A stretch of DNA of 64,000 nt from Curvularia clavata (GCA_023920165.1 CP089280.1:2666001-2730000), one strand, 5' to 3'; counted from the stretch's first letter, positions 1,024 to 59,495 are shown. Translations and numbers: made by a program. The notes: generated by a model from the letters alone, not told the origin.

Positions 1024-1512
1024 TGCAAGGCTGGGCCACGAGTGTTTGCCGCAGGCTGGAGCGCGAGCAGATGGCGACGCAGACTAAGTGCTGAGGGCAG
1101 ACTGGGTGCTAGTATGTGTACGAAGTCGGTCGAGACGGGCGGAAGCGGGAAGGACGAAAGGCTTAGGGGACATGGCGGCGGGTAGTGCCTCGTTTGCGGA
1201 AATAGAATGCGGGCAGGATTCACAGAGCGGTTGACTGTGGGCAGGCAGCTGCGTAAGCGGGAAACAACAAGAAGCATTAGTTATGTTGGACGTCCGGCTC
1301 ATTCGTACTTAGGCCGCACTCGAGTACCATCCATGCTGATGGTACAACAAAAGGCACCCCTGTAGCCGGCCAAGCATCGCAGTGCACTGTCAGAATAAGG
1401 AAATCTTGTACGGTACTGTGCAGAACTTGGCAGTCGTGCTTAAGCAACGCAAGCATATTGGCCACACGGGGCGTTTCAGCCATCGGCGACGTCACAGCAC
1501 CCGTGCGGCTGA

Positions 1513-25509: not shown

Positions 25510-25718
25510 TGTTAGACTGTTAGTGGCGTGAAGGTACAGCACGAGATAGATGAGAGAGAACTATGCTTTAACAGCCATGTATTCACGAGACGAATCGCTA
25601 TCGAGCACCTCTAGCGATCGTGGAGGCTTTATAGCCTTAGGTAAGCCCTAGCTGACTAACTAGGGTGAAGAAGGAGGGAATTGGACCAACATGTCCCAAT
25701 TTGGACCAGGTCCTGACA
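25510..25718. repeat. Solo LTR of Gypsy family B (young)
   Basis: 209 bp, nearly identical to 39902-40110. Perfect CCAAG target-site duplication. Confidence 0.97.
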
Positions 25719-26493: not shown

Positions 26494-26702
26494 TGTCAGG
26501 ATCTGGCCGAAATTGGGCCAATCTAGCCCAATCTTATCCAACTTAACCAACCTTAGTTAGTAATAGACTACCTAGGACTATAAAGTTCTAGTAGTCGCTA
26601 GAGAAGCTTGATAGCGATTCGTCTCGTGAATATACAGCGGCCAACGCATAGTTTTTTCCTATCTATCTCGTACTGTACCACCACCCAACGAATAGTCTAA
26701 CA
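26494..26702. repeat. RIP-diverged solo LTR of family B, inverted
   Basis: tgtcaggatctggcc...gatagcgattcgtctcgtgaata...gtctaaca, 209 bp. No clean TSD. Confidence 0.85.
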
Positions 26703-27363
26703 GCCCGATAACTGTTTCTAGACGATCGGTGGTAGTATTTGAAGCTGTTACGAACGAAGATACTGCTCTTGAAGGTAATACTGTTGAGTGCACCAAATTC
26801 TACAGAACATGGAGTAGGATCTGATCAACTTTGACGCGATAAATAAACGGAAACGTAACAATGTAGTTGTTGAATAGACTGTAGGATCTTACACGTCAAG
26901 GCACGTGATCTCAGCCACGTGATCAGAAGATGTATGGGATAAATAGAGCACTAAACTTGAGTAGCTACCAATTCAATGATCCGTCTCCCAGCTCGTTCCT
27001 ATGCTCGTTCTCCTGCAACAGTAGTTAACCCAAAAAACCAGCTGGTATCCATGAGACATCTTTGATCAAGTGTTGCATAGCAAAAAGGTACTCCCAAGTG
27101 GAATTCTCGTCTAGCAACATAGCGGTGTAATGCTTCTGGTGGCATTTCGCGGTTGTGGCAGCTTGCTTCAGCCAACTGTCATTTGCGAAGCTGCTGGGCG
27201 AATGTTGAAGCGTCCTGGGTCGCCGCAAGACAAGACGAGGGCCACAGCGTGCACATCCGCAACATTCCTTGTTGCGCCCGAAGCGATGCTCTTGATAAGG
27301 ACCTGTAACCGCCTTGATGTCCTTATTCTTGTTTGTAATTTTGAGTTCATATGCCTGAACTAC

Positions 27364-27572
27364 TGTCAGGATCTGGCCCAAATTGGATCAGTTTGGTCCT
27401 GTTCCCTCCTTCTCTACGCTAGTTAGTCAGCTAGGGCTTACTTAAGGATATAAAGCCTTCATAATCGCTAGAGGCACTCGATAGCGATTCGTCTCGTGAA
27501 TACATGGCTGTTAACGCATAACTCTCTCCCATCTATCTCGTGCTGTACCTTTATCCTACTAACAGTCTAACA
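27364..27572. repeat. Solo LTR of family B, inverted
   Basis: Reverse-complement match to 39902-40110, 209 bp. ACTAC TSD. Confidence 0.93.
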
Positions 27573-30030: not shown

Positions 30031-31341
30031 GAAGCCTTCTGGGATTTGAGAGGAGCAATACTTGCAGTATGAACAGAGATTGGCTAAAAGAGTCGATGAA
30101 AGCTTGTATCTCGCTTCCTTTTACTTCAGAGACTATGGGGCTTCCAACTAGTTTAGATTTTGACCTTTTGCTAAGCTTCTCTCTTATCTGCCAGCCTCGA
30201 TTTAGTGAACAGTAGTCCTGGTAGTACTTGGCAAATAGATTGATTAGGCTTAGCTCAGTTGCGCCTTTCAAGCTCTTTCTCCCGAAAACCAGATCTACTT
30301 GAGTGCAATACTTCTTTAGAACAACTTTCATCATACTTCCTCAAGTTATGAATTCATTCATTTATCCACCTGGGTGATGCTGCTGGAGGTCTCGCAACAA
30401 CTTCATCGTTCCCTGACGTCGTCACAACGTTTTCTTGACCTCATGAGCTTGGAGTTTGCAATCTAGAATACACATCAGTTGTTTTGAGATCTGGGAAAAG
30501 CAGGATTGACTAACTTGAAGCCGTGCTTTCGACCCCGCCGATGCCCAGGTAAGTCGCATTGCAATGACTTGCGCGTACACCTAACGCACCGCGTGTCCTG
30601 CGCCACCTTGTAGCACTTCATCTTAACTTTGCGGCATTGTAGACAAGCATGTGGTCTTAAAGCAAACAGATCAGTGAACGCGCAACTGCAGAGTCGATCT
30701 GGGGCTGGCTCACACTGCTCTCAAAGATTCGGAACCGAGCGCCTCATGGGCCTCCGTCATCCTGGATATGGGTATCGGACATTGAGGTCAATCTATGCCC
30801 GGATGAATATCGCAGTAGCATGTCAGTAGTATGCTGTCGAACGGGTAAGGTGTCTTATCTGTGTCACTTTTCCACGCTAACCACTTTGGCGCCTGTCCTT
30901 TCGCACAGTTGACACTTGCAGATTGCTTTCCACATGCAGCAACCAAGCACTTATCACATTCTCCACCCATACGTTCTCTAGTCATGAATGCTATATGGCG
31001 CATTACGCAAACGCATGTCCCGACAGTCGGCAGCCACCCTGGTATGAAGCTCTTACAGTAATAGGAACCTCTCGGAAAACGTTGACCCCGCACCACTCTT
31101 CCCGAAGCAATTCAACACAATCGCCAAGAGAATGAACCAGCTTTCTTTGGTAAAGTTGGTGCAATCTCGGCCCACTTCGTTATCATTTGCGCGTATCGCC
31201 GGTGTTCTACTATAGATTGAGACACCGGTGGCTGGCACGTGCGCTCCTCCATCAATAGTCCTCATTGCTCTACGAAAGGGTAAAGCAGTCAAGCAAGTCG
31301 GCACCAGATCTACACGAACCTGAATACTACGCATCTAAAAC

Positions 31342-37640: not shown

Positions 37641-39232
37641 AGTAGCTGAGCGGAGAGAATATATATGGAATTCAGTGTGACGTTGATAATTCCTGATATT
37701 GCGAAAATTCGGGAAGGATCAGTGGAGAAAGTTTACGTTGACGGGGGCTGTGCCCCGAAATGACGGAGAATGCTATTGAGCAATGTCAAGTGACGCATTT
37801 GTACCGCGAACCAGATAGGCTGCTTGCTGATGAATTGGTCTCTCTCTGCGGCATTAGGCTTGGGAGAATTTTGGAAGGAAGACGATGATTGCCGGCGGCT
37901 AGGACAGCGCAAATCCTATCTTGATAGGGAAGGCCCGGGAGAACGCCCGGACCGAGCAATCTTGAGCCGTAGCGACACCCAACACGATCGCACCACAAGG
38001 CATAAATTACATCATTCACCGAGAGGATCTTGCTCAAACCGTTGTAAGTTTTCTCCATGACTTCGGTACGTCGCTCTTTGTCTTCACAATTTATCTGCTC
38101 CACGATGTACTGAGCCATACATTGGAGCCTTGTAAACATTCTCAAGTTCATAATGCCTGGCTTCCGGGAGCAACGAGTCAAAACCTGTATACAGAGTAGA
38201 GATCGATACAGTTTGGTAGGCACGAAGGTGTCGTTTTCCTGGTATACTTCCCCATCATCTATACTAGAGTTAGTCCACGCGTTCTAACGCAAGCTATAAA
38301 GAGAACAAGAGACGTACTGATCCCAATGCTCTTCCATGTAATTCAGCAGATGGTTCCTGCTTTTTTTTTAAGTCTTCTTTGGTACACTCTTCGTCTTTGG
38401 AAACCTCCAATTGTTGAATATAATACTCGGGCGGATGGTCGTTCTGAAGGGAGAGCAAAGCTTCCTTCTCGTCGTCTTTATCAGCAAACGCATCGGCATA
38501 TGTCAGGTCGGTATCTGGATCAACTTCATCACTTGTAGGACCAGCATAATCACTCTCCTTAAGTGAATTTCCGGGTTTGAAGGAGAAGCTAGGGGGCTGC
38601 TCGACTAACGAACGTCGTTGCAGGTCACCGCAGTCTGCCAGCAGGCAGGCGTACGACGCAGAAAAGAGGTGCTAGGAGAAGGCTGAACTTGAAAGACATA
38701 AAAATGAGGCTTACGCAGCAAAGGAAGAAGAGAGAACTAGTAGCTCCGATTTTGTGACGCTCCAGGAAGCTGATCAAGGGGACATAAGTAGTTCGCTGGC
38801 AAAGGAGCCATAGTTTGAGTCAGTATCATAGGTCGCAAGGGTAGGTCATGAGCATGCTTGCACATTTGCAGCCGCAGCTTGGACAGCGATAGAATTAGGA
38901 ATCTCGACGCAGACGCCAACTGAAGCAGAAAATCCGAAAAGCAAGTTGCCTCTAGCCGCTGTTGACAAAATTAGAGATGTTTTGCGGCAAATAACCCTCC
39001 AGAAACAACGTTGCGAACCGCCAGAATCGGCCATGAAAACGCCGTCTAATTGTTTAATATCGTAAGAATTCTACTAGCTTGTTTTTTCAAATATTGGATT
39101 AGCTAGTCTTAATCTTGAAATTTAATAGTAGCTTATTAATACACTAATATCTATTAACCAGATCATCTTCTACTAGTTAAGTAGAACGTAAAATAAAACT
39201 ACAATAAAAAATAGCTTATTTGACATTAGCTA

Positions 39233-39901
39233 ACGTACCTCACGGGTTCGCGGTCTACACGGGTTCGCGGTCCACTTTTGCCAAGACCCTACTAAAATAC
39301 CTACTACCTATAAATGTTACAACAATAATAGTAGTTATAGCCTTCTAGTAAATGTTAAATATAGCTTACTCTTTAAGCTCTCAAATAGGACGCGAATCTC
39401 TCAGAATGACGTGCTGTAGCTCTTTATAATGTCTCTCGAACAACACTATATTAAAAACGCGACAGACGGGATTTATAAGCAGATTGCAGGCCTAAAACAA
39501 TAAATCTAACTAAGCTTAAGGAGGAGGTGATTATTAAGTATATTCTTAATCTTAGTTTACGTAGATTTCCCCCTAGGCTCGCAGATATAGCTAATATAGC
39601 CAATTTCTTACGCGCTAAGCGCAATTTAGGCTAGGTTAGCTAAAACTAGCCTAATATATTCGTTAAGCGCCGCCCTAAGCTTAAAGTAAAGTTTAATCGC
39701 AAGTATAACTATAAGAAAGCACTCTATAAGAATTTTAAAGCTATTTAAGACTAGTTTAGTCTAGTAGCTAATATAAAAGCTAAGTATAGTATCTAAGATA
39801 ACGATATATACAACTTTAATAAAATAGGCTTTATAATAGACTAGATTACCCCTAGAGCAGTTATTATAGCTTTAGAGAGACGTGGACGGCTAAAGACTAT
39901 C
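39233..39901 (+). mobile_element. RIP-mutated, truncated 5' copy of the pogo element at 16154-18015
   Basis: Same TIR after TA. Collinear with the reverse complement of ~17347-18015, with dense C>T/G>A changes. Ends abruptly at the Gypsy B LTR. Confidence 0.95.
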
Positions 39902-40703
39902 TGTTAGACTGTTAGTGGCGTGAAGGTACAGCACGAGATAGATGAGAGAGAACTATGCTTTAACAGCCATGTATTCACGAGACGAATCGCTATCGAGCAC
40001 CTCTAGCGATCGTGGAGGCTTTATAGCCTTAGGTAAGCCCTAGCTGACTAACTAGCGTGAAGAAGGAGGGAATTGGACCAACATGTCCCAATTTGGACCA
40101 GGTCCTGACAATACCTCCCTTCTTAGGGTGCAGCTGTCCCAGCTGCGCAACTTATCATGCTTGCCGCCCAGTTTGAGCGATTACTGGGTGATGCCGCCGT
40201 GTGGGTTGGAGGGTGTATTTTACTTGCTCACCGCCCCAGGGCTATGACGTCATAATAGCGGAGTTTTGCGCTGCTGCCTAGCCGACTGCCCCACTTTGGG
40301 CCAACCCGGCCCATCGGGGTACTCCTGGGCAGCGCCAAGAGTCACGTGACGCGCTAATTTAGTGCGGATCCAGGGATACAATAGCCAGTTTTTGACTAAG
40401 CCCAGTACACCCCACAGTCCACCAACCCCACTTTGGTAAGTAGACTCCCATTTTGTGGGTCTTCTCAGTTTGGGCCCGACACCTTCCACCCACGGTCTGT
40501 TTGCAACAGTTTGGCCCAATTTGGGCCAGTTTGCAGTCGACCTTGGTTTTGTTGCCTTTTTCTGAGGTTCTTCCCCTGGACTTGGAGTTTTCTGCTGACT
40601 GTTCTTTTTAGGCTGTTTCCTCCCATACGATCCATTTCGCGACAGATTCGACCGATTCGTCCCAAACACCCCCAAATTGGGGCCTTCAAGACCCACTTGA
40701 ACC

Positions 40704-41769
40704 ATGACGAACGCACTTGGATCCGTCAACCGCAGTACGGTGTCAAACCTGTTCGTACGCAAGGGCCAGAGGTCTTACTACGCTTGTGTGTGCTGTCTGA
40801 ACGCCTTCAGGGATAATGAGCCCGTTACTTTTGGCAGAGCGGGTTGCGTTATGTTGGACATCGACAATCCTGAGGTAGCTGAGGCTTGGTCTGGCTACAA
40901 GGTTGAACCGGAGTCTGGCGGTATGCCTAGGCAGGTGATGAAGTGTCTTCGCTGCTCTTACATCAACCGTGTCTGTTTTGCGGTAAGTTGCCCTGTTTTG
41001 CTCTGATTTGGTCCAATTTGGAGCTAAATGAGTGGTTAGGTGCCTCCTCCCGACAAGTTCTCCCCCGACTGGGTGAGACTTGGCCAGCTCATTGGGAAGG
41101 TTGAGGATGCCTTCCATGCCATTGACAAAGATATCCCCGAGGGTGCCAATGAGGCTGAAGTTCGTGCTGAGCGCAGGGAAATGTACGAGGTGGCCGTTAC
41201 TAGGCTTAGTATGTTCAGCAAGCCTATTGTTGAGTCACTCAAGAAGTAAGTGATCCAATTTTCCTAAATCTGGCCCAAATTGGACTAATTTGTGTAGGTT
41301 TGAGCCTCATGCTACTCATCTGTCTCTTTCCTCTGGTGCCATCGAGGAGGAAGATGATCCCCGCTCTGGTGTGAAGACTTCTGCCCTTGGCCGCTCCAAG
41401 AAGGATGAAGAGGTCAAGAGGAAGGCTCATGAGATCGAGGTGGAAACTTTGGTCGAGGCAAGGGTCAAGAAGTCCAAGTATGGCTCTGGTGGGCGCAAGA
41501 AGGAGGTTTGTGATCCTTTTCCCCCCTATTTACGCCAAATTGCCCCAATTTGGACTAACTTGGTTCTTTAGGTCAAGGTTGCCGAGGATGTCACTGATGA
41601 GCTTCAGAAGCGCATCAATGACATTGATGAAGAGATTTTGCAAAAAATGTCTGAGAAGGAGGGGGCCAAGGGTCAAGCCAAGAGGAAGATCACCAATGAC
41701 ATCAAGAACTTGGAAAAAGCCAAGGCAAGGCTTAACAAGGAGTACGAGGCCGCAGTTGCCGGTGATTAA
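40704..41769 (+). CDS. Antisense, 4-exon accessory gene inside Gypsy B (296 aa): expanded Zn2Cys6-like Cys pattern plus Lys/Glu-rich coiled coil
   Basis: Exons 40704-40982, 41040-41245, 41298-41505 and 41572-41769 join in frame (891 nt, no internal stop). GT..CTAA..AG introns. CX2C-X16-C-X32-CX2C-X6-C. Confidence 0.85.
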
Positions 41770-42057
41770 GGGTGGTTGGGTCTAGTTTTGTCCGTTTTGG
41801 CCCAAATTGGGTCAGTATGGGCTATGGTGGTTTTCTTCCCTTTCATATGAGATACCCAGGGCATTAGGATGGAGGTGATAATTGAAATTCTCTTTTCTTT
41901 ACTTTTCCATTCCTTGGTTTTTGTTGTGCAATGTCAGTTCAACATGGACCAATTTGGGCCAGGTTGCCCTAATCAGCTTATGCCGTTAAACACCTATAAA
42001 ACCCTTTGGGGAAAAAAGTAGGTGAAGGTACATGTGCTAATTTGGCTCCTATTGGCC

Positions 42058-45000
42058 CTATTTGGCCCGTTTTGGCCCGCGTCTGCGTCGAGGGACCTGA
42101 TTTGATTTGTTCCAGAACTCTTGAAGCGTTTTCTGGGTAACATTGGCGGCTGGCTCCCATGTGTTTTCAGAGTCGGGGTATCCAGTCCATTTCACTAAGT
42201 ATTCCCACTGATCGTCCTTGTTCTTCCTATGTCCCACTATTTTGTCCACGAGGTAGACATCGTCGCCTGTCTCGCCTAGTTCGTGTTGTGTTGGGACTTC
42301 AGGATGTGGTATATCACCTGGGGGGTGATACTGCTCTAGTAAGGATGCATGGAACACTGGGTGTACGTTTTTTAGGCCAGGCATATCTACTTTAAATGCT
42401 GATGGGCCGATTTGCTCAGTTATTGTGCCTGGGCCAACGTATTTCCAGTCGATCTTCTTCTTTGGTCGCAGGGATTTAATATGCTTATTAGATAGCAGTA
42501 CTTTATCCCCTACCTTAAAAGGAATGGGTTGTCTTTTCTTATCTGCGTGCCGTTTTTGGTACTCTTGCGCTTTTAGAATATTGTTCTTGCACTCTTGTTG
42601 TATTTCGATTATTCTTGAGGCAGTACTTGCCGCTAGGGGGTTTTCGCCCCCAGTTTGGGCGTCTTTGGGCCATTCTGCGCCTCTTGGGTGTATGCCGTTG
42701 CATGCTTGGAAGGGGGTGACCTTGGTAGTCGAATGTACACTGTCATTGTACGCGTATTCCCCTACTGAGATCCATAATGCCCAGTCGTCCTGCTCTAGGG
42801 AACAGTAGCAGCGGAGGTACTGTTCTAGAGTCTGATTTTGGCGTTCAGTCTGGCCATCTGTTTGTGGGTGGTATGCCGAAGTAAGTACACGTTTCGAGTT
42901 AAGGTAGTGAAGAAAGGTCTTCCAATGGGTGGAGTTCATTAAAGGGCCTCTATCTGATATGATTCGGCGTGGTACGCCATGGAGACGGATTACTTCGCGC
43001 AACCATGCCTGAGCTAGGTCTACTCCGTCCCAATTGGACCGTGCTGGCACGTAATGGGCCATTTTGGTCAGTCTGTCGACTATCACGAGGATTGCGTCGT
43101 ATACTACGCCTTGCAGTTTGCTTGGTGGCAATTCAGTTATAAAGTCCATTGTTACTTCCTCCCAGGCTCTATTGGGTGGTGGTAATGGTGCAAGGGGCCC
43201 GTATGGCAGGTGCCGTTTCGGGGTAGATTTTTGACAGATAAGGCATGATTTGCAGTAGTCTTCCACGTCTTTCCTCATGCCAGCCCACTTGTAGTGGCGC
43301 GTTAGTTTCTCTAATGTGCGTCTTGCGCCAAAATGTCCAGAAAGCGGGTCGTCGTGACCTTGTTTTAATGCTGCTGCTTTTTCCTGTGCCGTCTTGGGCA
43401 CGGTTGGGCCAGAGTGGCCCTGTTTGAGCCTTTGTGGACTTGGTTTGGCCACGTCGTCTTCTTCTGAGCTACATGAGTCCGAAGTGTATTCGTCCGTCTC
43501 TGAGTCGGCCTCTTGAGCCAATGCTGCATGCCTCTGGTCTTCATGTTGCTTCGCTGCTGTATTCTGCCGTCCTTGTGATCGTGTGGTGGTAGCTGCAGCT
43601 ATAGCAGTCCCTTCGGCATTGAATTTGAGCAGATGGCGTAGCGATGGCACATATGCGCTATTATTCTTCTGCTTTGGCTCTTGGGCGGCTTTTATGTAGT
43701 CGGGTCTGCGCGATGGGCCGTCGGCGGGGTTTGTTTTCCCAGGTTGGTGTACAATTGTGAAATCAAAACCTGATAGGGCTAAGTAAGACCGTACCTGGCG
43801 GTGATTCAGTGTTTTGGTTTCCATGAACCACTTCAGGTTTCGATGGTCAGTAATTAGATCAAAGTGTATCCCATCAAGATATCTTCGCCAGTGTTGGAGA
43901 CTAGCGACGATAGCTAGTAGCTCTTGGTCATGCGTGTCATAGTTGTACTCCGCGGCGATTAATTTGCGCGAGTAGAAGTCTACGGGTCTCCAGCAAGCCT
44001 CTTTGGGCACGTACTGGCTTAGGATGCCAGCAATCGCTCCTCCCGACGCATCGACCTGTACTCTAGTCTGATTGTCTGGATTAAAGTGGGTTAGGATAGG
44101 TACTGCCGTAAAGGAGTTTTTTAGCGTCTTAAACGCGCTCTTGGCGTTTTCGTCTAGAATTAGCAGTACGCTTTCCTCTTTTCGCTGAGCTTTGCCCCCT
44201 TTGGCGGCGTTCGGCTCCTTTTTCAGTAACTCAGTTAAAGGCAGTGCGATTCTGGAGAAGTTAGCAATGAATCGACGATAGTAGTTCATGAAGCCTAGAA
44301 ACACGCGGACATCGCGCACTGTACGCGGTTCTGGCCATTCTTGGGCCGTTTTGGCCCGATCTGGGTCGATACTTATACCCTCGGGGCTAACTGTGTAGCC
44401 AAGGAACTCAGTGTGTTGGGTGTGCCATTCACACTTCGAAGTCTTCAAATACAGCTTGGCTTCGCGCAATCTGTTTAAGACTTCGCGCACGTGTCTCTCG
44501 TGCTCCTCTTCTGTGTTGGAGAACACCAGGATATCGTCCAAATACACAATACAACTCACATCTACCAATCCTGCAAGGATATGGTGTATGTACGCCTGAA
44601 ATTGTGCAGGAGCGTTTGTAAGGCCAAAAGGCATCACAGTATACTCGAAATGGCCGTATCTGGTGCGGAAGGCTGTCTTCCACTCGTCTCCCTCCTTAAT
44701 CCTCACCCTATGATATGCTTCTCGGACGTCTAGCTTGGTATAGAATTTTGCCTCAGCCAATCTATCCAAGGACTCCGTAATCAAGGGTAAAGGGTGACGG
44801 TTTTTGAGCGTTATGTTGTTTAGACCTCTATAGTCCACACATAACCTCATCGTGCCGTCTTTCTTCTTCGCGAAGAGTATTGGTGCGCCTGCTGGCGACT
44901 TCGAATGTCTAATCCACCCTCTCGCGAGATACTCACGCAAGTAATCCCGGAGTAGCGCTAACTCGCTCTTCGAGAGCCCATATAGCGGCTGATGTGGTGG

Positions 45001-45790
45001 CGTGGTGCCTTCTTTCAAGGTTATCACCAAATCGTGCGGGCCATGCTCAGCAAGGCACTTGGCATCCTCTTCCGAGGCCAAATCCGCAAAGTCCTCGTAC
45101 TGTGGTGGCAACTGAGGCAACTTGGCTTGATCAGGGCCAACCTGGGCGTTCTTGGGCTTCTCCAACCCCTCCCAGTCCTCTTCCTCGTCGCTTGGGTCCC
45201 AACCCATCACAGTGGACACTTTGAGCGCGTAAACGTCCGTCGTGGGCGTTCGGAGTGTTTTCTCAAACTCTTCGGCGCTTTCTGTCGCGATTTTCTCATA
45301 TGAAGCCCTATCTACATATTTCACGCCCCTAAATAGCACTCGACGCGACCGGAGGCTTATTTTGGGCTTGTAGAAGTCGACCCAGGGCATACCTAAGCAT
45401 ACTGGGTAATGCTTCATTTCTGTCACCACAAAAGGTATATTCTGGACTTTAGTCCTCCCTCTTGTGTCTGTGACTTTCATGGTCACCTCTGTAGTGCCAT
45501 AAATCTCAAACTCCGCGCCGCTTAAGGCTTCTGCCACTAAGTTCGGTATAGGAGTTATTGTTAAATCGTGATCCTTGGCTTGGTGGATTGAGAGTAGATT
45601 TAGTTGAGACCCTCCATCTATCAGCGCTTCGAGTGGATCTTGGCCAATTTGCACCGTTATGGTCAATAGTGGGCTAGGTTTGCTGAACATTGCTTCGCGA
45701 AGTGTCTTCAAGTCCTCTTCTAGCTCTAGCCTTGCAATATGGGCGGAGAGTAGGGCTACTAGGTTCTCCGCCCCTTGCCTTTTTCCAGTT
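42058..45790 (-). CDS. pol: Gypsy pol (protease, RT, RNase H, integrase, chromodomain), probably via a -1 frameshift from gag
   Basis: ALIDGGS, YLDD, VDAS, HHCC zinc finger, MDFI..SDRG..TER, YLVKWTGYPDSENTWEP. The pol frame overlaps the gag end in the -1 frame at GGAAAAAG. Confidence 0.95.
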
Positions 45791-46991
45791 TGGGTTCCTC
45801 AGGTGCCGCTTGGCTTTGTTTGTGCTTACTACAGTTCCTGCTGATGTGTCCGGGTTCCCCGCAGTTGTAACAGACAATTTTGCCCTCTGCGTCGCGTCCT
45901 CGAACCTTGTTTGCCGCGTATGAACCTTTTGTATCCGCAGGGTTCCGTCTTTGTTTTTTCAGGGTTTTTTCGTACCCTCTTGTGTTCTTTGGTGGTGTGC
46001 CGCTCCTGGCTTGCTTGTTCTGCGTTGTTCTAGCGTTGCTAGGCTTCTCTCTTTTCGTTCTGTCCCAGATAAGTCGCGCTCGCGCGTTTAGGTCTGAGAT
46101 TGTGCTTCTTTGACCTGGTTCGAGTAAAAGCAACTCTTTCTGTATTGTCATTGTCAAAGCGCCCATAAAGTCCCTCACTCTCTGCTCTTCCGAGTAGGAA
46201 TTGCCCAATTCGGACCAAAGTGTGTCCAATTTGGCCAACAGGTCGTTTGGGTCCTGAGACCAGTCCTGTCTGATGTGTTTGAGAGCTCGGTGGGCTTCAA
46301 GCTTCCGCTGTTCTGGTGGTCCCAGTGAATCCACCATTACAGTCTTCAGGTCTAGCCACGTGGGTGTCCAATTCGTGTCTTTTCTACAGTAGTCGTGATA
46401 ATAGGCGTCCCATGTGGAGCGTAGGGGGTCAGTGATATACCTAAGCCCAAAATCGATCTTGACTGCCTCTGTTTGGAACGTTTTAGGGCTTCCCCTAAAC
46501 GTTGCCTCACATTCGCGTTCCCAGCGATTGTACTCGGCACGATCGCGGCTTGTGAACTGTGTTGGTTTTTCTGGTCGTGGAGCTCCCACGTTTGGTTCTA
46601 GTTGTATCCCCACCGCACGGTGTGGTTCATATAGGTCCTCTGTCAGTGCTGTCGTGTCACCTTGGTCGAACCGACGCTTGATTTCCTGGAGACGTTTCAG
46701 TTCTTGCTCGTCAAGCGCTCGTTGCCTCCAAGCGCGCAGTTCGTCTAGCTGTTGAGCAATGGTGGTCTGAGGTGGTTCAAGTCGAGCTGGGCTGCCCTGA
46801 ATTGGGCTTCTCTGTGCCAGTTCGGCCTGATCTGCCTCCGTGACGGCAGGCTCGGATAGTTCACTTGAAGATGGCTGGGTTGAGTCTCTAGTTAGAGTGG
46901 GCTGTGAGTCCCCTACTACCGTGTTTCGAGTTGACCTTGGGCGGCTCCGAGTTTGGCGACTACCTGGGTTCGGCATGGCTCTCTCTGACAT
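45759..46991 (-). CDS. gag: Gypsy gag
   Basis: 410-aa ORF after the 5' LTR, with zinc knuckle CYNCGEPGHISRNC. Confidence 0.93.
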   Translation of the reverse strand: MSERAMPNPGSRQTRSRPRSTRNTVVGDSQPTLTRDSTQPSSSELSEPAVTEADQAELAQRSPIQGSPARLEPPQTTIAQQLDELRAWRQRALDEQELKRLQEIKRRFDQGDTTALTEDLYEPHRAVGIQLEPNVGAPRPEKPTQFTSRDRAEYNRWERECEATFRGSPKTFQTEAVKIDFGLRYITDPLRSTWDAYYHDYCRKDTNWTPTWLDLKTVMVDSLGPPEQRKLEAHRALKHIRQDWSQDPNDLLAKLDTLWSELGNSYSEEQRVRDFMGALTMTIQKELLLLEPGQRSTISDLNARARLIWDRTKREKPSNARTTQNKQARSGTPPKNTRGYEKTLKKQRRNPADTKGSYAANKVRGRDAEGKIVCYNCGEPGHISRNCSKHKQSQAAPEEPKLEKGKGRRT

Positions 46992-47232
46992 CTCGTAGGT
47001 GTACTTGAGGAGAGCGATTCGAATGTTAGACTGTTAGTGGCGTGAAGGTACAGCACGAGATAGATGAGAGAGAACTATGCTTTAACAGCCATGTATTCAC
47101 GAGACGAATCGCTATCGAGCACCTCTAGCGATCGTGGAGGCTTTATAGCCTTAGGTAAGCCCTAGCTGACTAACTAGCGTGAAGAAGGAGGGAATTGGAC
47201 CGGCATGTCCCAATTTGGACCAGGTCCTGACA

Positions 47233-47315
47233 TAAGCTAGTCAGCTAATCTACAGTATCTGGGTGCGTACTTCTATACCCAGAATCAACTTAGTCTATAG
47301 TCGATCTGTCAAGAC
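47233..47315 (+). repeat. Fragment of a Copia LTR (same family as 49273), the target of the hAT insertion; it resumes at 63985-64000
   Basis: Reverse complement of the LTR end (taagctagtcagc...gtcaagac|tataatcg), with one mismatch. Confidence 0.93.
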
Positions 47316-47344
47316 TAGACTGGTAAATGGGTATGGGGCACCCG

Positions 47345-47575
47345 GCTCGGGTTGGGGTAGGGCTTGGGGCTATAGAGACTCGGGCTGGGGTAGGGCTGGG
47401 GCTGCTAAGAGTCGGGCTGGGGTAGGGCTGGGGCTGCTAAGAGTCGGGCTGGGGTAGGGCTAGGGCTGCTAAGAGTCGGGCTGGGGCAGGGCTGGGTTGC
47501 TTGGCACTTGGGCTGGGGTAGGGCTGGGTTACTAAAGAGTTAGGTAGGGGTAGGGCTGGGTATAGCCTGCCCAGC
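47345..47575 (+). repeat. hAT left subterminal G-rich tandem repeats (~32-bp unit gggctggggtagggctggggctgctaagagtc)
   Basis: Visible tandem array; related repeats occur at 63710-63970. Confidence 0.9.
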
Positions 47576-49272: not shown

Positions 49273-49634
49273 TGTTGAAGTAATAGGTGGCTGCTAGTAC
49301 TACTAGTAGTAGACTTAGACAGCCTGATCGAGAGACTCTAGATAGACGAGAGATTGCTAGGGGAGAGAGTTAATAGATACAATTGATTTTGTATAAACTG
49401 CTCTGGTTTTTATCTACTAGCTATTCTACTACTATATATATTGGCTGGAGTAGATTCTAGAAGAATCTATCTAGTAGTAGCTTGCGTAATCTTTGGCGTC
49501 ATAGACAGATGTCTATAGATCGATTATAGTCTTGACAGATCGACTATAGACTAAGTTGATTCTGGGTATAGGAGTACGCACCCAGATACTGTAGATTAGC
49601 TGACTAGCTTAGATCTACAACACGCCCCCTTAAG

Positions 49635-51428
49635 CTAGGAAGCTGTAATTTGGGATATATCTACTAGATTTGCTCCAAGTAGAAAGTCTCGAGTCTTGTC
49701 GGCGCTTGTAGCCTTAGTGAGACTGTCGGCTAGTAGACAGCTAGTGTTTTGATATACTAGCTGGATCTGTTTGGTCTCTACCTTCTCACGGATAAAGTAG
49801 TATTGGATATCGATGTGTTTTGTCCTAGCGTGATAGGTAGGATTTTTGGTGAGTTGGATTGCACTTTGGCTGTCTGAGTAGACAGTAGTAGCTGTCTTGT
49901 CTATGTCTGGCAGTATTGGATATAGAGCTTTAATCTCTTTGATAAACTGGGTGAGATATAAGCTCTGTTTAACTGCTTCTCGGTAGGCCATGAATTCAGC
50001 TTCTGCGCTTGATAGTGCTACTGTCGGCTGTAGTTTTGACAGCCAAGAAATCGCGCAGTTGCTCTTGTTTGACTGGAGTAAAAATATGTATCCAGTGGTA
50101 GATCTTCTACTGTCAAAGTCACCCCCCCAATCTGCATCCGTAGATCCAATCAGTTTAATCAGATCTAAGTTATTTGGTGCAGATTGACTGCTTTTGATGC
50201 TGTTTTGGTTATCAGTACTGAGCTGATAGAGTAGTCCTAGCTGTCTTGACTGAGCTAGATATCCCCATAGGTAGTCTAGACTGCTGAAATGCTCGGTGCT
50301 CGGATTGGCCATGAATCTGGATAGAAGATTGACTGCGTAGGTAATATCCGGCCGAGTAAAAATGGATAGATAGATGAGAGAGCCAATTTGCTGCTGGTAC
50401 ATATTGGTGGCGTTTGGAGTAGCCGTTTGGCTGTTTCTGTTGAGCTTGATATTCTGTTGCAGTGGAGTCTGTCTTGGCTTAATATCTTGCTTATTGAATC
50501 TAGCAAGTAGCCTTTGTAGATAGTTTTCTTGGGTAATATAGATCGCTCGTCTAGATCTAATTACTTGGACTCCAAGAAACTCTGAGACGTCGCCTAGATC
50601 TTTGATCTCAAGCTTTGAGATAGCTGTTAGGTCTTTGAATAGCTTTTGAATACTTTGCTCTTGTTCTCCAAAAATAAGCAAGTCGTCTACGTGAGTAGCT
50701 ATAACAAGCTTCTGCTCGACATTGATATAAGTGGCAGTGTCAATAAACAGAGATTTGAAGCCTAGTTGTCCGAGTAGGCTTGCTAGTAGTTTCTGCCACT
50801 GTCTACTGGCTTGTTTTAGCCCGTATAGAGCCTTGTTAAGCAAGCAGACGTGCTGTGGATAGTGCTGATCTTGAAATCCTTCTGGCTGCTCGACGTATAT
50901 AGTCGTGTCGATTAAAGCATTTGGGAAAGCTTGCTTGACATCCCAGCTTTTTATATGCCAGTTTTGAGCTGCTGAAATGGCTAGTAGTAGCCGGATTAGA
51001 TCAGGCCGAGTAGTATTGGCAAATGTCTCGTAGTAGTTGACTCCAAGCTCTTGTTGAAAGCCTTTCGCTACCCAACGTGCTTTGAATATAAAATCGCCAT
51101 TTTGCTGGTATTTTTTGTTAAGTACCCAGCGGCCTTTGAGAACTGGATATTCGGACGGTCTTGGTACAAGCTTCCAAGTGTCGTTCTTTTGCAGCTGGTC
51201 TAGCTCGTTTTGCATAGCTAATAGATAGTGTTGACTGTCTTGGTGCTGTAGCACTTGAGCGTAGCTTTTTGGATCAGTGATATCCTTTGAAGTAAATAAG
51301 ACTTCTTCTAGGATAATGTCCTCTGCTGCTATTTCTGGTGGAGCTTTTTGATTAGTGGATAGAGCTAATTCTGCTGGCTTGGCTTTCTTTTTGATCAAAA
51401 CAATCGGATTTCTTCCAACTACTCTCAT
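49635..51428 (-). CDS. Copia RT-RNase H (copy 1)
   Basis: KARWVAKGF, WDVKQAF, LYGLKQAS, HVDD, TDADW, SSAEAE, KHIDIQY. Confidence 0.93.
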   Translation of the reverse strand: MRVVGRNPIVLIKKKAKPAELALSTNQKAPPEIAAEDIILEEVLFTSKDITDPKSYAQVLQHQDSQHYLLAMQNELDQLQKNDTWKLVPRPSEYPVLKGRWVLNKKYQQNGDFIFKARWVAKGFQQELGVNYYETFANTTRPDLIRLLLAISAAQNWHIKSWDVKQAFPNALIDTTIYVEQPEGFQDQHYPQHVCLLNKALYGLKQASRQWQKLLASLLGQLGFKSLFIDTATYINVEQKLVIATHVDDLLIFGEQEQSIQKLFKDLTAISKLEIKDLGDVSEFLGVQVIRSRRAIYITQENYLQRLLARFNKQDIKPRQTPLQQNIKLNRNSQTATPNATNMYQQQIGSLIYLSIFTRPDITYAVNLLSRFMANPSTEHFSSLDYLWGYLAQSRQLGLLYQLSTDNQNSIKSSQSAPNNLDLIKLIGSTDADWGGDFDSRRSTTGYIFLLQSNKSNCAISWLSKLQPTVALSSAEAEFMAYREAVKQSLYLTQFIKEIKALYPILPDIDKTATTVYSDSQSAIQLTKNPTYHARTKHIDIQYYFIREKVETKQIQLVYQNTSCLLADSLTKATSADKTRDFLLGANLVDISQITAS

Positions 51429-51456
51429 GGAGTTGGCTGGTGGATTTGACTGGCTA

Positions 51457-51540
51457 GTATTTGGCTCAGTATTTGGCTCAGTATTTGGCTCAGTATTTGG
51501 CTCAGTATTTGGCTCAGCATTTGGCTCAGTATTTGGCTCT
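51457..51540. repeat. 12-bp tandem repeat (gtatttggctca x7) encoding an EPNT linker; also at 56396-56479
   Basis: Directly visible. Confidence 0.9.
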
Positions 51541-51569
51541 TCGTCAAGCTGCAGTTCTTCATCAGGAGC

Positions 51570-53830
51570 TTAATCATTGAACACTCCTTCTAGTATTTGG
51601 ACGTCTCTTGCAGTAGTAACCTTGTTAGTTCTAATATCGATTAGACGATATAGATTTTTACTAATATATCCAACAAGGTAGTACTGCTGGACACGAGAAT
51701 CTAGTTTGCCAAGAAACTCTTTTGGCTCTTTCTTGTATGCTAGAGATCCCCAGATTCTAACATTGCTGACGTCTGGTTTATATCCATATTTGGCTTCAAA
51801 TGGCGTCTTAAAGCCAATAGAGCTGTGCGGTGTTCTATTGTATAGATACACTGCCGCTAGTAGAGCTTCTGCCCACAGCTTATTAGGCATTTTGGCTTCA
51901 AATAGCAGAGCTCTTATCTTGTCAAATAACGTTCGGTTGATCCGCTCGGCTCCGCCTTTGCCTTCTGGATTGAATGGGGAGTTGAAAAAATCGGAGTTTA
52001 AATCCCTTTCTAGTAGCTAGCTTTTGCAGCTCTAGCGTGTCCAACTCATTGTCTGATTGGATAGCTTTGATCTGCTTTGAGTCTTGGACTTCTGCTTTCT
52101 TAACAAAAGCTTTGACTGGCTTGACTAGCTCTGATCTAGACGTGAGTAAGTCCACTTCTAGATATTTGGTGTAGTAGTCTAGAAAGGTAATATAATACCG
52201 ATAGCCCTTATTCGTCTTTGGCTTAATCGGCCCCCCTAGGTCGCAGTAGATCAAATCACCAAACTGGTGGACTGGTGTAGATATTGGATCTCTGCTTATT
52301 TTGCTAGCAAATTTGCTTCTCAAGCAAATCTCGCAGTTGCTAAATCCACTGCTGGTTTTGGTATTTGATTTGACGCCTTTGGTATTCTCACTTAGCTTAT
52401 TTAAGCTAGTTTTACCAATATGGCCAAAACGTCGGTGTAGAAGAGACGTTTGATCGTCTGGCTTAGACTGATCTGTTTGATTCGGTTGGACGGATTTGGC
52501 TGTCAGCTCTGTATTGTATGTCTCTGTATAGACTTGGCTAGTTTGGATATTGCTAACTGCAGTAAAAGTAGCAATATTTCTAGCGTATTGCCCCTTCGCT
52601 AGTATTTTGCTAGATAGCCTAATTAGGCTGCTAGTCTTTGAAAACTCGAATTCAGCTCCTTTTTGAACTGCTTGGTAGAGACTGAGTAGATTGACTTTGA
52701 AGTCCGGCACTAGTAAGACTTCTTTGAGTACTACTGTCTCGCCCGTACTCGTAAATTTAATTGGCACTTCGCCTTTGGCTGTTGCTTGTAGCAACGCAGT
52801 AGAGTTGCCCCATTTAATATACGTATTACTAACGCTGGTAAGGCTTCTAAAAAGCTGTCGGTCAGAGCAAATATGGGAGCTGGCGGCGCTGTCTAATATC
52901 CACTCAATCGACTTGGAAGACTCAGTGGATAGAGCAGCTTTGATATCGGCGATATTTGGATCGACTGAGACTACTGTAGATAGAGCTGTCTCAGGCTTAT
53001 AATATGTCCGACTGGGGCGTTTGCTGGGGTCTTTCTGCCAGCATTGGTCGACTAAATGTCCATTTCTCTTGCAGTGAGAGCAGTATTTTGGACTTTTGGT
53101 GGATTTTTGAGTAGCCAAAGTCATTTCGACGTCTTTTGACTGTGGAGCTTGGTTGGAGCTGCTAATTGGGCTCCTTTGGTATGGTCTGTAGCTCTTTTGG
53201 TAAGAGCTATTTGAGTTACTGCCGCTGCTGCTTCTAATCGATTTCTGGCGTCTTGATTCGTCCATAATTTGGTTGTATAAGTTCTCAAGATCAATCTCTT
53301 TGTTAGATCTAAAATCTTGAGTAATAGCTGTAACCAAATAGTCAAAGTCTGAGCTTAGATTATTGAGAATCAAAGCAGCAATGAATCGGTGCGGTAGTGC
53401 CAGATTTCGGCTCTCTAGACTAAGGACTAGTCTGTTGATTTTTTTGGAGATATATTTCGACGTTGTTTTGGCACTGCTGCACGGTCGTATTGATAAGATC
53501 TTTGCAAATTAAGAAGTCAGAGCTAAAGCCTTTTGGGCTATATAGCTTCTTTAGGTGATTCCATAGACTATATGGAGTTTTCATGTCTTTTGACTGTAGT
53601 AGAGGCCCATCGTCTAGACTGAGTCGTAGAGTAGACAGAGCTTTGATTTCTGAGCTTTTTAGCTTCTGATATCTCTCAGAGCCTTTACTTTGTTCAAGCT
53701 CTTGTGGGTCGACTGTTATAATCTCGTAGCAGTCTTGCTGTATAAGCACTGCTTCGATCCGTAGTGCCCACATGTCATAGTTAGAGCTGCCTTTGAGCTT
53801 TGGCACTCTAAATATGCTACTGTCAGCCAT
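51570..53830 (-). pseudogene. Copia gag-protease-integrase (copy 1), two frameshifts relative to copy 2
   Basis: Matches 56509-58764 except for indels at ~51975-51990 and ~53440 (homopolymers). Confidence 0.85.
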
Positions 53831-54573
53831 TTTGTGCTGCTAGTCTGTCTAGAAATATAGACTAGATAGCTGTTTGTAGTCTAGCGCAGTAAATAAGCAG
53901 TTACTGTTCTTACTATGAAGAACTCTGGCTGCTAGTCGATCGAGTTGATCTGTCTGCAACTAGCTACAAGAAGCTTCGGCTAACCCCTAACCAGAGTATT
54001 TAGCTGCGTTTGCGGCTCAGAGACTCCTAAACTGATAGGGTTTTTGCTTCAGTAGAGTTTCTCAGCTTTTTAGCCGTGGTTTACTCTTAACCCTTAGTAA
54101 CCCTAGCTTTTACTAAGAGACTAGCTATATTTATACTAGCTCTTACTTTAGTCTTATGCTAAGACTTGCTAGAATCTTCGATCGATAGACACGTAATCCG
54201 GGCTCATAACCTGTTGAAGTAATAGGTGGCTGCTAGTACTACTAGTAGTAGACTTAGACAGCCTGATCGAGAGACTCTAGATAGACGAGAGATTGCTAGG
54301 GGAGAGAGTTAATAGATACAATTGATTTTGTATAAACTGCTCTGGTTTTTATCTACTAGCTATTCTACTACTATATATATTGGCTGGAGTAGATTCTAGA
54401 AGAATCTATCTAGTAGTAGCTTGCGTAATCTTTGGCGTCATAGACAGATGTCTATAGATCGATTATAGTCTTGACAGATCGACTATAGACTAAGTTGATT
54501 CTGGGTATAGGAGTACGCACCCAGATACTGTAGATTAGCTGACTAGCTTAGATCTACAACACGCCCCCTTAAG

Positions 54574-56367
54574 CTAGGAAGCTGTAATTTGGGATATATC
54601 TACTAGATTTGCTCCAAGTAGAAAGTCTCGAGTCTTGTCGGCGCTTGTAGCCTTAGTGAGACTGTCGGCTAGTAGACAGCTAGTGTTTTGATATACTAGC
54701 TGGATCTGTTTGGTCTCTACCTTCTCACGGATAAAGTAGTATTGGATATCGATGTGTTTTGTCCTAGCGTGATAGGTAGGATTTTTGGTGAGTTGGATTG
54801 CACTTTGGCTGTCTGAGTAGACAGTAGTAGCTGTCTTGTCTATGTCTGGCAGTATTGGATATAGAGCTTTAATCTCTTTGATAAACTGGGTGAGATATAA
54901 GCTCTGTTTAACTGCTTCTCGGTAGGCCATGAATTCAGCTTCTGCGCTTGATAGTGCTACTGTCGGCTGTAGTTTTGACAGCCAAGAAATCGCGCAGTTG
55001 CTCTTGTTTGACTGGAGTAAAAATATGTATCCAGTGGTAGATCTTCTACTGTCAAAGTCACCCCCCCAATCTGCATCCGTAGATCCAATCAGTTTAATCA
55101 GATCTAAGTTATTTGGTGCAGATTGACTGCTTTTGATGCTGTTTTGGTTATCAGTACTGAGCTGATAGAGTAGTCCTAGCTGTCTTGACTGAGCTAGATA
55201 TCCCCATAGGTAGTCTAGACTGCTGAAATGCTCGGTGCTCGGATTGGCCATGAATCTGGATAGAAGATTGACTGCGTAGGTAATATCCGGCCGAGTAAAA
55301 ATGGATAGATAGATGAGAGAGCCAATTTGCTGCTGGTACATATTGGTGGCGTTTGGAGTAGCCGTTTGGCTGTTTCTGTTGAGCTTGATATTCTGTTGCA
55401 GTGGAGTCTGTCTTGGCTTAATATCTTGCTTATTGAATCTAGCAAGTAGCCTTTGTAGATAGTTTTCTTGGGTAATATAGATCGCTCGTCTAGATCTAAT
55501 TACTTGGACTCCAAGAAACTCTGAGACGTCGCCTAGATCTTTGATCTCAAGCTTTGAGATAGCTGTTAGGTCTTTGAATAGCTTTTGAATACTTTGCTCT
55601 TGTTCTCCAAAAATAAGCAAGTCGTCTACGTGAGTAGCTATAACAAGCTTCTGCTCGACATTGATATAAGTGGCAGTGTCAATAAACAGAGATTTGAAGC
55701 CTAGTTGTCCGAGTAGGCTTGCTAGTAGTTTCTGCCACTGTCTACTGGCTTGTTTTAGCCCGTATAGAGCCTTGTTAAGCAAGCAGACGTGCTGTGGATA
55801 GTGCTGATCTTGAAATCCTTCTGGCTGCTCGACGTATATAGTCGTGTCGATTAAAGCATTTGGGAAAGCTTGCTTGACATCCCAGCTTTTTATATGCCAG
55901 TTTTGAGCTGCTGAAATGGCTAGTAGTAGCCGGATTAGATCAGGCCGAGTAGTATTGGCAAATGTCTCGTAGTAGTTGACTCCAAGCTCTTGTTGAAAGC
56001 CTTTCGCTACCCAACGTGCTTTGAATATAAAATCGCCATTTTGCTGGTATTTTTTGTTAAGTACCCAGCGGCCTTTGAGAACTGGATATTCGGACGGTCT
56101 TGGTACAAGCTTCCAAGTGTCGTTCTTTTGCAGCTGGTCTAGCTCGTTTTGCATAGCTAATAGATAGTGTTGACTGTCTTGGTGCTGTAGCACTTGAGCG
56201 TAGCTTTTTGGATCAGTGATATCCTTTGAAGTAAATAAGACTTCTTCTAGGATAATGTCCTCTGCTGCTATTTCTGGTGGAGCTTTTTGATTAGTGGATA
56301 GAGCTAATTCTGCTGGCTTGGCTTTCTTTTTGATCAAAACAATCGGATTTCTTCCAACTACTCTCAT
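54574..56367 (-). CDS. Copia RT-RNase H (copy 2)
   Basis: Same protein as copy 1. Confidence 0.93.
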   Translation of the reverse strand: MRVVGRNPIVLIKKKAKPAELALSTNQKAPPEIAAEDIILEEVLFTSKDITDPKSYAQVLQHQDSQHYLLAMQNELDQLQKNDTWKLVPRPSEYPVLKGRWVLNKKYQQNGDFIFKARWVAKGFQQELGVNYYETFANTTRPDLIRLLLAISAAQNWHIKSWDVKQAFPNALIDTTIYVEQPEGFQDQHYPQHVCLLNKALYGLKQASRQWQKLLASLLGQLGFKSLFIDTATYINVEQKLVIATHVDDLLIFGEQEQSIQKLFKDLTAISKLEIKDLGDVSEFLGVQVIRSRRAIYITQENYLQRLLARFNKQDIKPRQTPLQQNIKLNRNSQTATPNATNMYQQQIGSLIYLSIFTRPDITYAVNLLSRFMANPSTEHFSSLDYLWGYLAQSRQLGLLYQLSTDNQNSIKSSQSAPNNLDLIKLIGSTDADWGGDFDSRRSTTGYIFLLQSNKSNCAISWLSKLQPTVALSSAEAEFMAYREAVKQSLYLTQFIKEIKALYPILPDIDKTATTVYSDSQSAIQLTKNPTYHARTKHIDIQYYFIREKVETKQIQLVYQNTSCLLADSLTKATSADKTRDFLLGANLVDISQITAS

Positions 56368-56508
56368 GGAGTTGGCTGGTGGATTTGACTGGCTAGTATT
56401 TGGCTCAGTATTTGGCTCAGTATTTGGCTCAGTATTTGGCTCAGTATTTGGCTCAGCATTTGGCTCAGTATTTGGCTCTTCGTCAAGCTGCAGTTCTTCA
56501 TCAGGAGC

Positions 56509-58764: not shown

Positions 58765-59495
58765 TTTGTGCTGCTAGTCTGTCTAGAAATATAGACTAGA
58801 TAGCTGTTTGTAGTCTAGCGCAGTAAATAAGCAGTTACTGTTCTTACTATGAAGAACTCTGGCTGCTAGTCGATCGAGTTGATCTGTCTGCAACTAGCTA
58901 CAAGAAGCTTCGGCTAACCCCTAACCAGAGTATTTAGCTGCGTTTGCGGCTCAGAGACTCCTAAACTGATAGGGTTTTTGCTTCAGTAGAGTTTCTCAGC
59001 TTTTTAGCCGTGGTTTACTCTTAACCCTTAGTAACCCTAGCTTTTACTAAGAGACTAGCTATATTTATACTAGCTCTTACTTTAGTCTTATGCTAAGACT
59101 TGCTAGAATCTTCGATCGATAGACACGTAATCCGGGCTCATAACCTGTTGAAGTAATAGGTGGCTGCTAGTACTACTAGTAGTAGACTTAGACAGCCTGA
59201 TCGAGAGACTCTAGATAGACGAGAGATTGCTAGGGGAGAGAGTTAATAGATACAATTGATTTTGTATAAACTGCTCTGGTTTTTATCTACTAGCTATTCT
59301 ACTACTATATATATTGGCTGGAGTAGATTCTAGAAGAATCTATCTAGTAGTAGCTTGCGTAATCTTTGGCGTCATAGACAGATGTCTATAGATCGATTAT
59401 AGTCTTGACAGATCGACTATAGACTAAGTTGATTCTGGGTATAGGAGTACGCACCCAGATACTGTAGATTAGCTGACTAGCTTAGATCTACAACA

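Follow-up and report, generated by a model that had tools for sequence, protein, structure and literature searches.

The chromovirus-type Ty3/Gypsy retrotransposon at 39902-47232 of a 64,000-nt stretch of Curvularia clavata DNA (GCA_023920165.1, CP089280.1:2666001-2730000; hereafter the window, in which all positions are counted from the first letter) bears an additional gene between pol and its 3' long terminal repeat (LTR). This accessory gene (40704-41769, plus strand) runs antisense to gag and pol, is conserved and constrained in related elements, and has at least its third intron spliced out of its RNA. Its predicted product of 296 amino acids (aa) combines an N-terminal six-cysteine domain with a C-terminus rich in lysine and glutamate. 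The gene is best regarded as a conserved component of the retrotransposon, and its product as probably a regulator of the element that would act as a nucleic acid-binding dimer. A preliminary description of this DNA had located an antisense gene of four exons in this slot and had proposed that it is a selected, element-encoded regulator and neither env nor random cargo. The position and architecture of the gene, its belonging to the element and its conservation are all borne out by the present analysis; its assignment to the Zn2Cys6 proteins is not.

In the gene model, four plus-strand exons join into 891 nt, which correspond to 296 codons starting with the ATG at 40704 and a TAA stop codon at 41767-41769. 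Exon 1 (40704-40982, 93 codons) contains the six-cysteine domain and is followed by intron 1 (40983-41039, 57 nt, GTAAGT..AG, phase 0), exon 2 (41040-41245, 206 nt), intron 2 (41246-41297, 52 nt, GTAAGT..AG, phase 2), exon 3 (41298-41505, 208 nt), intron 3 (41506-41571, 66 nt, GTTTGT..AG, phase 0) and exon 4 (41572-41769, 65 codons and the stop). The open frame, the canonical donors and the AG acceptors are thus present as had been described, and so are the branch-like sites, which read CTAAA, CTAAT and CTAAC. The conserved cysteines C28, C31, C48, C81, C84 and C91 have exactly the spacing previously given, CX2C-X16-C-X32-CX2C-X6-C; C30 is an additional, non-conserved cysteine. Exon 3 encodes a conserved L.SGA motif and a basic cluster resembling a nuclear localization signal, which is conserved at the exon 3/4 border and reads PKKRK in the homologue P0122. 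Inspection of exon 4 finds it K/E-rich with hydrophobic residues every three to four positions, a heptad-type pattern, where a coiled coil had been proposed earlier. The gene does not overlap pol, whose stop lies at 42058; a spacer of 590 nt separates its ATG from the 3' LTR (39902-40110), and the whole gene lies within the 1947 bp between the pol stop and that LTR.

Exon 1 (93 aa), compared with 1.84 billion representatives, matched seven proteins at E<=0.001 (best E 5.6e-23), one of which is a repeat artefact and six of which are genuine relatives. Five of these six are open reading frames (ORFs) of 92-104 aa that end a few residues after a C-x-A-V motif, just past the read-through donor of intron 1, and they look like first exons as prokaryote-style gene calling would yield them. 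The sixth, P0122, is full-length (309 aa) and has a K/E-rich helical tail. No longer relatives of exon 1 emerged from a word-indexed search, no long fused forms were seen in a search with alignment A3 restricted to proteins of 542-2000 aa, which is weak evidence, and ESM Atlas searches gave no usable lead.

Linkage of the gene to the retrotransposon was assessed in loci retrieved by their pol and not by the accessory gene, namely 80 metagenome loci with pol 36-68% identical to that of the window and two IMG/VR loci. The preliminary description had suggested tBLASTn as a way to establish such linkage to Gypsy pol, and tblastn together with a domain hidden Markov model (HMM) matched one of the 80 metagenome loci, L001, which is the nearest by pol (68%) and has its match antisense and downstream of pol. 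Neither method found the window protein in the other 79 (pol 36-60%). The close IMG/VR locus L081 (pol 61%) carries a homologue as well, spanning the ends of a circular assembly. Models of the gene built by hand in L001 and L081 have four exons and three introns in phases 0, 2 and 0, as in the window, and the four full-length proteins (296, 286, 259 and 309 aa, the last being P0122) align end to end, exon 2 included, with 22-28% identity and pairwise E-values of 1.8e-13 to 5.8e-29. In an alignment of 12 relatives (A4) the six cysteines are invariant in all 12 and no other column is. The cysteine pattern, the frame and the intron phases are kept in related elements; conservation of the pattern and of the frame had been demanded in the preliminary description. 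ORFs on the element strand over the same region (174, 163, 96 and 83 aa) have no counterpart in L001 or L081, gave only weak leucine-rich matches (best E 0.011) and were discarded. Taken together, the exon-1 relatives with E-values down to 5.6e-23, the shared intron phases and an exon 3/exon 4 junction found in RNA (see below) place the gene far beyond chance. It lies inside the element behind pol, on the opposite strand, and is kept in related elements, which are the marks of the antisense genes of the aORF-3R/brtn type.

Genes of this kind appear to be more widespread than direct similarity to the window protein indicates. The pattern C-x2-C-x6-25-C-x5-40-C-x2-C-x5-8-C was searched in six-frame ORFs of the retrieved loci, 38 of the 80 metagenome loci having the C-terminus of pol and at least 800 nt beyond it. 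Eleven matches occur in 37,885 aa of antisense sequence up to 3 kb behind pol, versus seven in 648,994 aa elsewhere, and four of these seven (in L001, L003, L013 and L041) likewise lie antisense behind a piece of pol or across a circular junction. Besides the window, 17 loci have such a Cys6 ORF, including L001, L081 and L092, which adds 15 further chromovirus loci to L001 and L081; 14 of the 79 metagenome loci that tblastn and the HMM had left unmatched have one in the same slot. Placement within the element is clear for most of them: in L005, L016, L017, L034 and L092 the ORF lies between the end of pol and the 3' LTR, and the contigs of L001, L002, L003, L014, L041 and L081 are circular assemblies containing nothing but the element. 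A GT donor equivalent to that of intron 1 follows exactly two codons after the sixth cysteine in 11 of the 18 ORFs (those of the window, L001, L081, L002, L003, L005, L006, L008, L013, L014 and L041), the other seven having no donor at that codon. That the intron position is shared speaks for common descent, even among elements with a pol only 40-52% identical to that of the window. Comparison of the window family with a group with shorter loops by hhalign brings the cysteines into register, although weakly (probability 21.6%, E 0.001).

Selection on these proteins can be gauged in the wider class, where three sister pairs have ratios of nonsynonymous to synonymous substitution rates (dN/dS) of 0.20, 0.22 and 0.45, which indicates that the proteins of the antisense Cys6 class are under purifying selection. 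The three pairs lie outside the window's own lineage, where no close pair is available and where the synonymous sites separating the window from L001 and L081 are saturated at 22-28% protein identity; the dN/dS values hence apply to the wider class. Overall, the same slot, strand and intron phases at 61-68% pol identity, the invariant cysteines, the dN/dS values and the spliced RNA agree with the earlier view of an element-encoded, conserved and constrained gene. The earlier exclusion of env and of random cargo is thereby supported: the gene is part of the element, has been conserved along with it and is constrained at the level of the protein.

Several side observations were made in these loci. 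L049 (3681-4355), L052 (6157-7263) and L061 (6188-6874), all on the minus strand, have long antisense ORFs behind pol with half of the pattern, CX2CX6C, and acidic or coiled-coil tails; the first cysteine half may sit in another exon, and the number of elements counted as having such a gene is therefore a lower bound. An antisense ORF behind pol in L035 (5171-6100, minus strand) was rejected as an accessory gene because it encodes a Tc1/mariner-type transposase (HTH_Tnp_Tc3_2, E 1.7e-10) and is an unrelated insertion. The six circular assemblies mentioned above are contigs of 7-8 kb with terminal direct overlaps of 107-154 nt; circular assemblies of LTR elements represent either collapsed LTRs or one-LTR circles. 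Gypsy-type, chromovirus-like contigs also occur in metagenome-assembled genomes and isolates labelled bacterial or archaeal (L083-L115), and L081 is filed as a viral genome; such retrotransposon contigs in prokaryote and viral records look like eukaryotic contamination or mis-binning.

Expression of the gene is documented by the metatranscriptome run X3, contigs of which cover 40526-40865 and 41570-41804. The ends of this cover at 40526 and 41804, and the stretches left uncovered, are not taken as transcript ends. A contig of 260 nt (X3 record 8) lies on 41570-41804, and its 25 leading letters match the end of exon 3 (41479-41503) with two transitions. Both 41504-41505 and 41570-41571 read AG; the join is therefore exactly that of exon 3 to exon 4, and the contig is exon 3 spliced to exon 4 with the predicted 66-nt intron removed. 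The GT..AG borders on the plus strand fix the direction of this spliced RNA; X3 is the single run in which transcription was seen, and its strand is known solely through these borders. The spliced antisense transcript that had been predicted is thus documented at its last junction, introns 1 and 2 falling outside the stretches covered by RNA contigs. In the run X6, the kind of which is not known, the copy differs from the window at three exonic positions, all synonymous. One 84-nt X3 contig skips 56 nt with GT..AG borders within exon 1 (40755-40810), which a contig of equal depth retains; the skip produces a frameshift and a stop after 18 codons, and may reflect either alternative splicing to an unproductive form or a deletion that one of the copies carries. 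An intron in the 5' untranslated region, considered because contig 1 of run X1 ends at 40438 beside a GTAAGT at 40436, was rejected since this end is unlike a splice branch point in the assembly graph.

The carrier is a 7331-bp element on the minus strand of the window. Its pol (42058-45798, open) has the domain order protease, reverse transcriptase, RNase H and integrase followed by a C-terminal chromodomain, and its gag (45759-46991, open) contains a CCHC zinc knuckle (zf-CCHC), both according to Pfam, which identifies it as a chromovirus. The pol product is 100% identical to a National Center for Biotechnology Information (NCBI) protein named from C. clavata. The two LTRs (3' LTR at 39902-40110 and 5' LTR at 47024-47232, both minus strand) form a direct repeat of 209 bp with TG..CA ends and are identical at 207 of 209 bases, the two mismatched bases being adjacent; alongside the 3' LTR lies a polypurine tract (40111-40124, minus strand), AAGAAGGGAGG on the element strand. 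Since the LTRs differ at only these two positions, the element is judged to be young.

The protein is less easily placed than the gene. Canonical Gal4-type clusters have the spacing CX2CX6CX5-12CX2CX6-8C, and in the window protein the loops of 16 and 32 residues fall outside this range and the second half, CX2CX6C, alone fits. Zn_clus (PF00172) failed to match window exon 1 or a single one of the 12 family members at E<=10, while two host Zn2Cys6 genes in the window, which served as positive controls, passed the cut-off of 21 bits with 23.2 bits (30478-30720, minus strand) and 34.1 bits (1-1083, minus strand). Some distant Cys6 ORFs come closer, with sub-threshold Zn_clus matches in L077 (E 0.079), L092 (E 0.27 and 2.1) and L034 (E 0.47); none of those scanned reaches the Pfam cut-off. 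A match to DUF3716 was not obtained with Pfam either. Matches of PDB profiles to RAD52 (E 0.19, in the tail) and to nuclear-receptor zinc fingers (E>=1.6) were judged to be noise from the cysteine pattern. The homologue P0122, folded from its single sequence, gives a poor N-terminal domain, and the region corresponding to exon 4 is modelled as long helices with a predicted local distance difference test score (pLDDT) above 90, which lends some support to the helical C-terminus proposed for the window protein. The term Zn-cluster-like used in the preliminary description is therefore fair for the cysteine pattern, whereas membership of the Gal4 family is not supported.

A second feature of the element that may bear on the function of the protein is the palindrome CCAAWTTGG. 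The window has 12 exact copies versus 0.44 expected, a number that none of 100 shuffles reached, and all 12 lie in the element (ten copies) or in solo LTRs of the same family (at 25696 and 27378). Motif scanning places the ten copies in the 3' LTR (40088-40096), early in U3 and, as read on the element strand, some 70 nt before a TATAAA, and in the 5' LTR (47210-47218); upstream of the accessory gene, 188 nt before the ATG as the core of a 17-bp palindrome (40516-40524) and 32 nt before it (40672-40680); once in each intron, at 41013-41021 (intron 1), 41275-41283 (intron 2) and 41545-41553 (intron 3); 33 nt past the stop codon (41802-41810); between the gene and the pol stop (41949-41957); and within gag (46226-46234). 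The exons of the accessory gene have none. Distances between exact copies are 147-428 nt, or 10-341 nt if one mismatch is allowed, and show no period. The word is present in both orientations, which suits a DNA site more than an RNA signal. In L002 (1341-6850), with a pol 46% identical, the same 8-mer is more frequent than any other. The introns of L001 and L081 hold other recurring words near the branch site.

In the mechanism proposed here, transcription of the accessory gene would start in the 590-nt spacer that precedes the ATG. Introns that are antisense to the genomic RNA of a retroelement are not removed from it and hence are copied back into DNA, and the introns of this gene, being antisense to the element's genomic RNA, can survive reverse transcription. 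The 296-residue product would bind zinc through the six invariant cysteines of its N-terminal 93 residues, enter the nucleus by means of the basic cluster at the exon 3/4 border and dimerize through the C-terminal heptad helices. The dimer would bind nucleic acid and tune the element's own transcription or replication; its mode of action would resemble that of an antisense regulator of a retrovirus and not that of env. The best candidate for its binding site would be CCAAWTTGG, copies of which stand in the promoter of the LTR, ahead of the gene and once within each intron. A specific link between the protein and this palindrome is, however, tentative and on balance doubtful. No more than the same tentative standing is given to a broader proposal, by which fungal chromoviruses have an old, fast-evolving and intron-marked six-cysteine gene that encodes a dimeric, sequence-specific DNA-binding factor recognizing element-specific palindromes, here CCAAWTTGG.

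A number of observations weigh against a DNA- or RNA-binding regulator borne by an intact element. In exon 1 Pfam recognizes neither a DNA-binding domain nor any other at E<=0.01, the AlphaFold model of exon 1 from the 12-sequence alignment is of moderate quality (pLDDT 70.6, predicted template modelling score 0.51), and Foldseek matches this model to no PDB structure at E<=0.001 (best VIA-align Z 2.1), so that zinc and nucleic acid binding are predicted from the cysteine pattern by itself. The palindrome has no copy in the closest relatives, L001 and L081, which means that protein and palindrome do not simply travel together, and it includes a CCAAT box that a host factor could potentially use. 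RNA support consists of a single 260-nt contig, which was assembled from a mixed sample and stems from a copy 97% alike (range 95-99%); this X3 copy differs from the window at five exonic positions, four of them non-synonymous, and the runs X1 and X2, the RNA status of which is a guess, keep intron 3 unspliced. As for the carrier, which had been called an intact Gypsy, the LTR pair and the open gag and pol agree with this, whereas a 5-bp target-site duplication was not found for the full element (flanks CTATC and TAAGC). Its flanks are formed by two different transposons, a pogo-like fragment (39231-39901) and a piece of a Copia LTR (47233-47317). Because of the missing duplication and the mismatched flanks, the copy at 39902-47232 may have undergone recombination between elements.

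Alternative explanations have to be weighed against a regulator that binds nucleic acid. The protein could instead be a non-transcriptional accessory factor, of which retroviruses offer several examples, that assists nuclear import of the pre-integration complex, chaperones nucleic acids or blocks silencing, its cysteines forming a structural or protein-binding zinc module. This is possible, if unlikely: no DNA-binding family or fold is recognized in the protein, which evolves fast (22-28% identity versus 61-68% for pol) as host-interacting accessory proteins do, and such roles have been proposed for plant antisense ORFs in the parts of PMC7264820 consulted. However, nothing specific speaks for these roles, and the basic cluster, the heptad helices and the promoter palindromes fit a DNA-binding dimer at least as well. 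If the protein were a divergent but true Gal4-type Zn2Cys6 factor, captured from a host in ancient times, its six cysteines, the canonical CX2CX6C spacing of its second half (K-C-x-R-C-x6-C) and the canonically spaced ORFs in the same slot of distant elements (e.g., CX2CX6CX10CX2CX6C in L077) would be accounted for, as would the sub-threshold Zn_clus matches and the register of the cysteines in hhalign. This origin is nevertheless improbable given the off-range loops and the failure of all 12 family members, and of every Cys6 ORF scanned, at thresholds that the host genes of the window pass.

The remaining alternatives dispense with a selected protein. Antisense transcripts regulate other LTR elements, as stated in the consulted parts of PMC7264820, and the X3 contigs show that antisense RNA exists here, so the working product could be the RNA, serving copy-number control or forming double-stranded RNA with the element transcript, with the frame being secondary. 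Such a reading is very unlikely, as it leaves unexplained why the frame stays open for 259-309 codons in four lineages at 22-28% identity, why cysteines and intron phases are conserved and why dN/dS is below 0.5 in the sister pairs. That the gene is a recent capture from the host, or a chance frame carried as neutral cargo, is scarcely credible, since slot, strand and intron phases are the same where pol has diverged to 61-68%, the donor position recurs in eight more distant elements and six contigs are circular assemblies of the element alone; the failure to find longer or fused relatives points, weakly, the same way.

Other repeats lie in the neighbourhood of the element. The solo LTR at 25510-25718, which belongs to the same Gypsy family, is flanked by a clean target-site duplication of 5 bp (CCAAG), and older LTR remnants lie at 26569-26703 (78% alike) and 27364-27572 (88% alike, inverted); at least four insertions of this Gypsy family have occurred in this neighbourhood. 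A G-rich tandem repeat of about seven 32-nt units (47333-47556) lies immediately outside the 5' LTR. A tandem Ty1/Copia pair follows at 49273-59495, in which two 5.29-kb units, 99.9% alike and with frames broken differently (528 versus 754 aa), have the middle LTR of three, each of 350 bp, in common. At 16282-18045 there is an open gene for a DDE transposase of the pogo/Tc5 type, and an inverted fragment of the same transposon, 87% alike, adjoins the 3' LTR of the Gypsy element.

LTR retrotransposons are usually viewed as gag-pol machines under host regulation only. If a conserved, spliced and expressed accessory gene holds in many fungal chromoviruses, these elements would bring their own regulator, as complex retroviruses do. 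Should the palindrome reading be true as well, the retrotransposon would carry both a regulator and the sites that it binds, a counterpart of the regulatory genes of complex retroviruses that would have escaped notice since gene callers and repeat annotation both skip it. For annotation, the lesson is that gene callers overlook such genes or break them up; of the six database relatives, five are exon-1 fragments. The copy described here is also a good experimental handle: it is young, its gag, pol and accessory gene are open, one of its splice junctions has been seen in RNA, and the accessory gene, which does not overlap pol, can be mutated on its own.

Several known systems resemble the accessory gene in part. 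Gal4-type Zn2Cys6 proteins (PF00172) share with its product the six cysteines, a K/R-flanked CX2CX6C second half, the fungal setting and heptad helices elsewhere in the protein; they differ in having loops of 6 and 5-12 residues instead of 16 and 32, helices that adjoin the cluster instead of lying about 140 residues away, and a profile that the window protein does not match; the moderate exon-1 model gave no fold match either. HBZ of human T-cell leukaemia virus type 1 (HTLV-1) is a retroviral bZIP protein encoded by an antisense, spliced gene at the 3' end of the provirus and is a dimerizing nuclear regulator of its own LTR. On paper, the accessory gene is alike in its antisense orientation and splicing, in its place at the 3' end of the element and in the regulator role proposed for it. 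The comparison is one of analogy: HBZ is a bZIP protein, no sequence relation to it is claimed, and membership is not proposed.

Closer in layout are the plant aORF-3R genes (Grande gene23, RIRE2, Retand ORF4 and PvRetro13 ORF2), which have the same slot and orientation, are conserved within families and lack database similarity, and of which the antisense product of Grande has been shown to localize to the nucleus (PMC7264820, as far as consulted). They belong to plant elements, Retand being of a non-chromovirus lineage according to the portion seen of PMC11963269, their sequences are unrelated, and a six-cysteine start is not reported for them in the sections of PMC7264820 available to us. 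In the same sections Boty, from Botrytis and Sclerotinia, is grouped with the antisense ORFs of plants, and their function is stated to be unknown. In fungi, the published record amounts to one 2011 paper on Botrytis and Sclerotinia: brtn, an extra ORF of BcGypsy1, is credited to Zhao et al. 2011 (Virology 417:248) and described as absent from the current genome annotation in the part of PMC8365987 seen. Excerpts of two further papers mention a Boty-like element with gag, knuckle, reverse transcriptase, integrase, chromodomain and brtn-106 (PMC4227169) and a Monilinia transcript 63% identical to BRTN (PMC5987419). Beyond these brtn citations the literature, as far as the texts were accessible, yielded no overall treatment of antisense genes with six cysteines in the Gypsy elements of fungi, and supplements (Figure S1 of PMC8365987) may show further ORFs. 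The Boty-like Ty3/Gypsy elements of Botrytis cinerea and Sclerotinia, as described in these excerpts, are alike in being chromodomain Gypsy elements with a protease and an extra antisense gene between pol and the 3' LTR; they differ in host class, the pol of the window being identical to a C. clavata protein, and the likeness is known from descriptions of layout and not from sequence comparison. Publications on fungi (brtn, 2011) and on plants have thus already described an antisense gene between pol and the 3' LTR, and the gene at 40704-41769 adds a new member, intact and probably active, to a kind that has been known since 2011.

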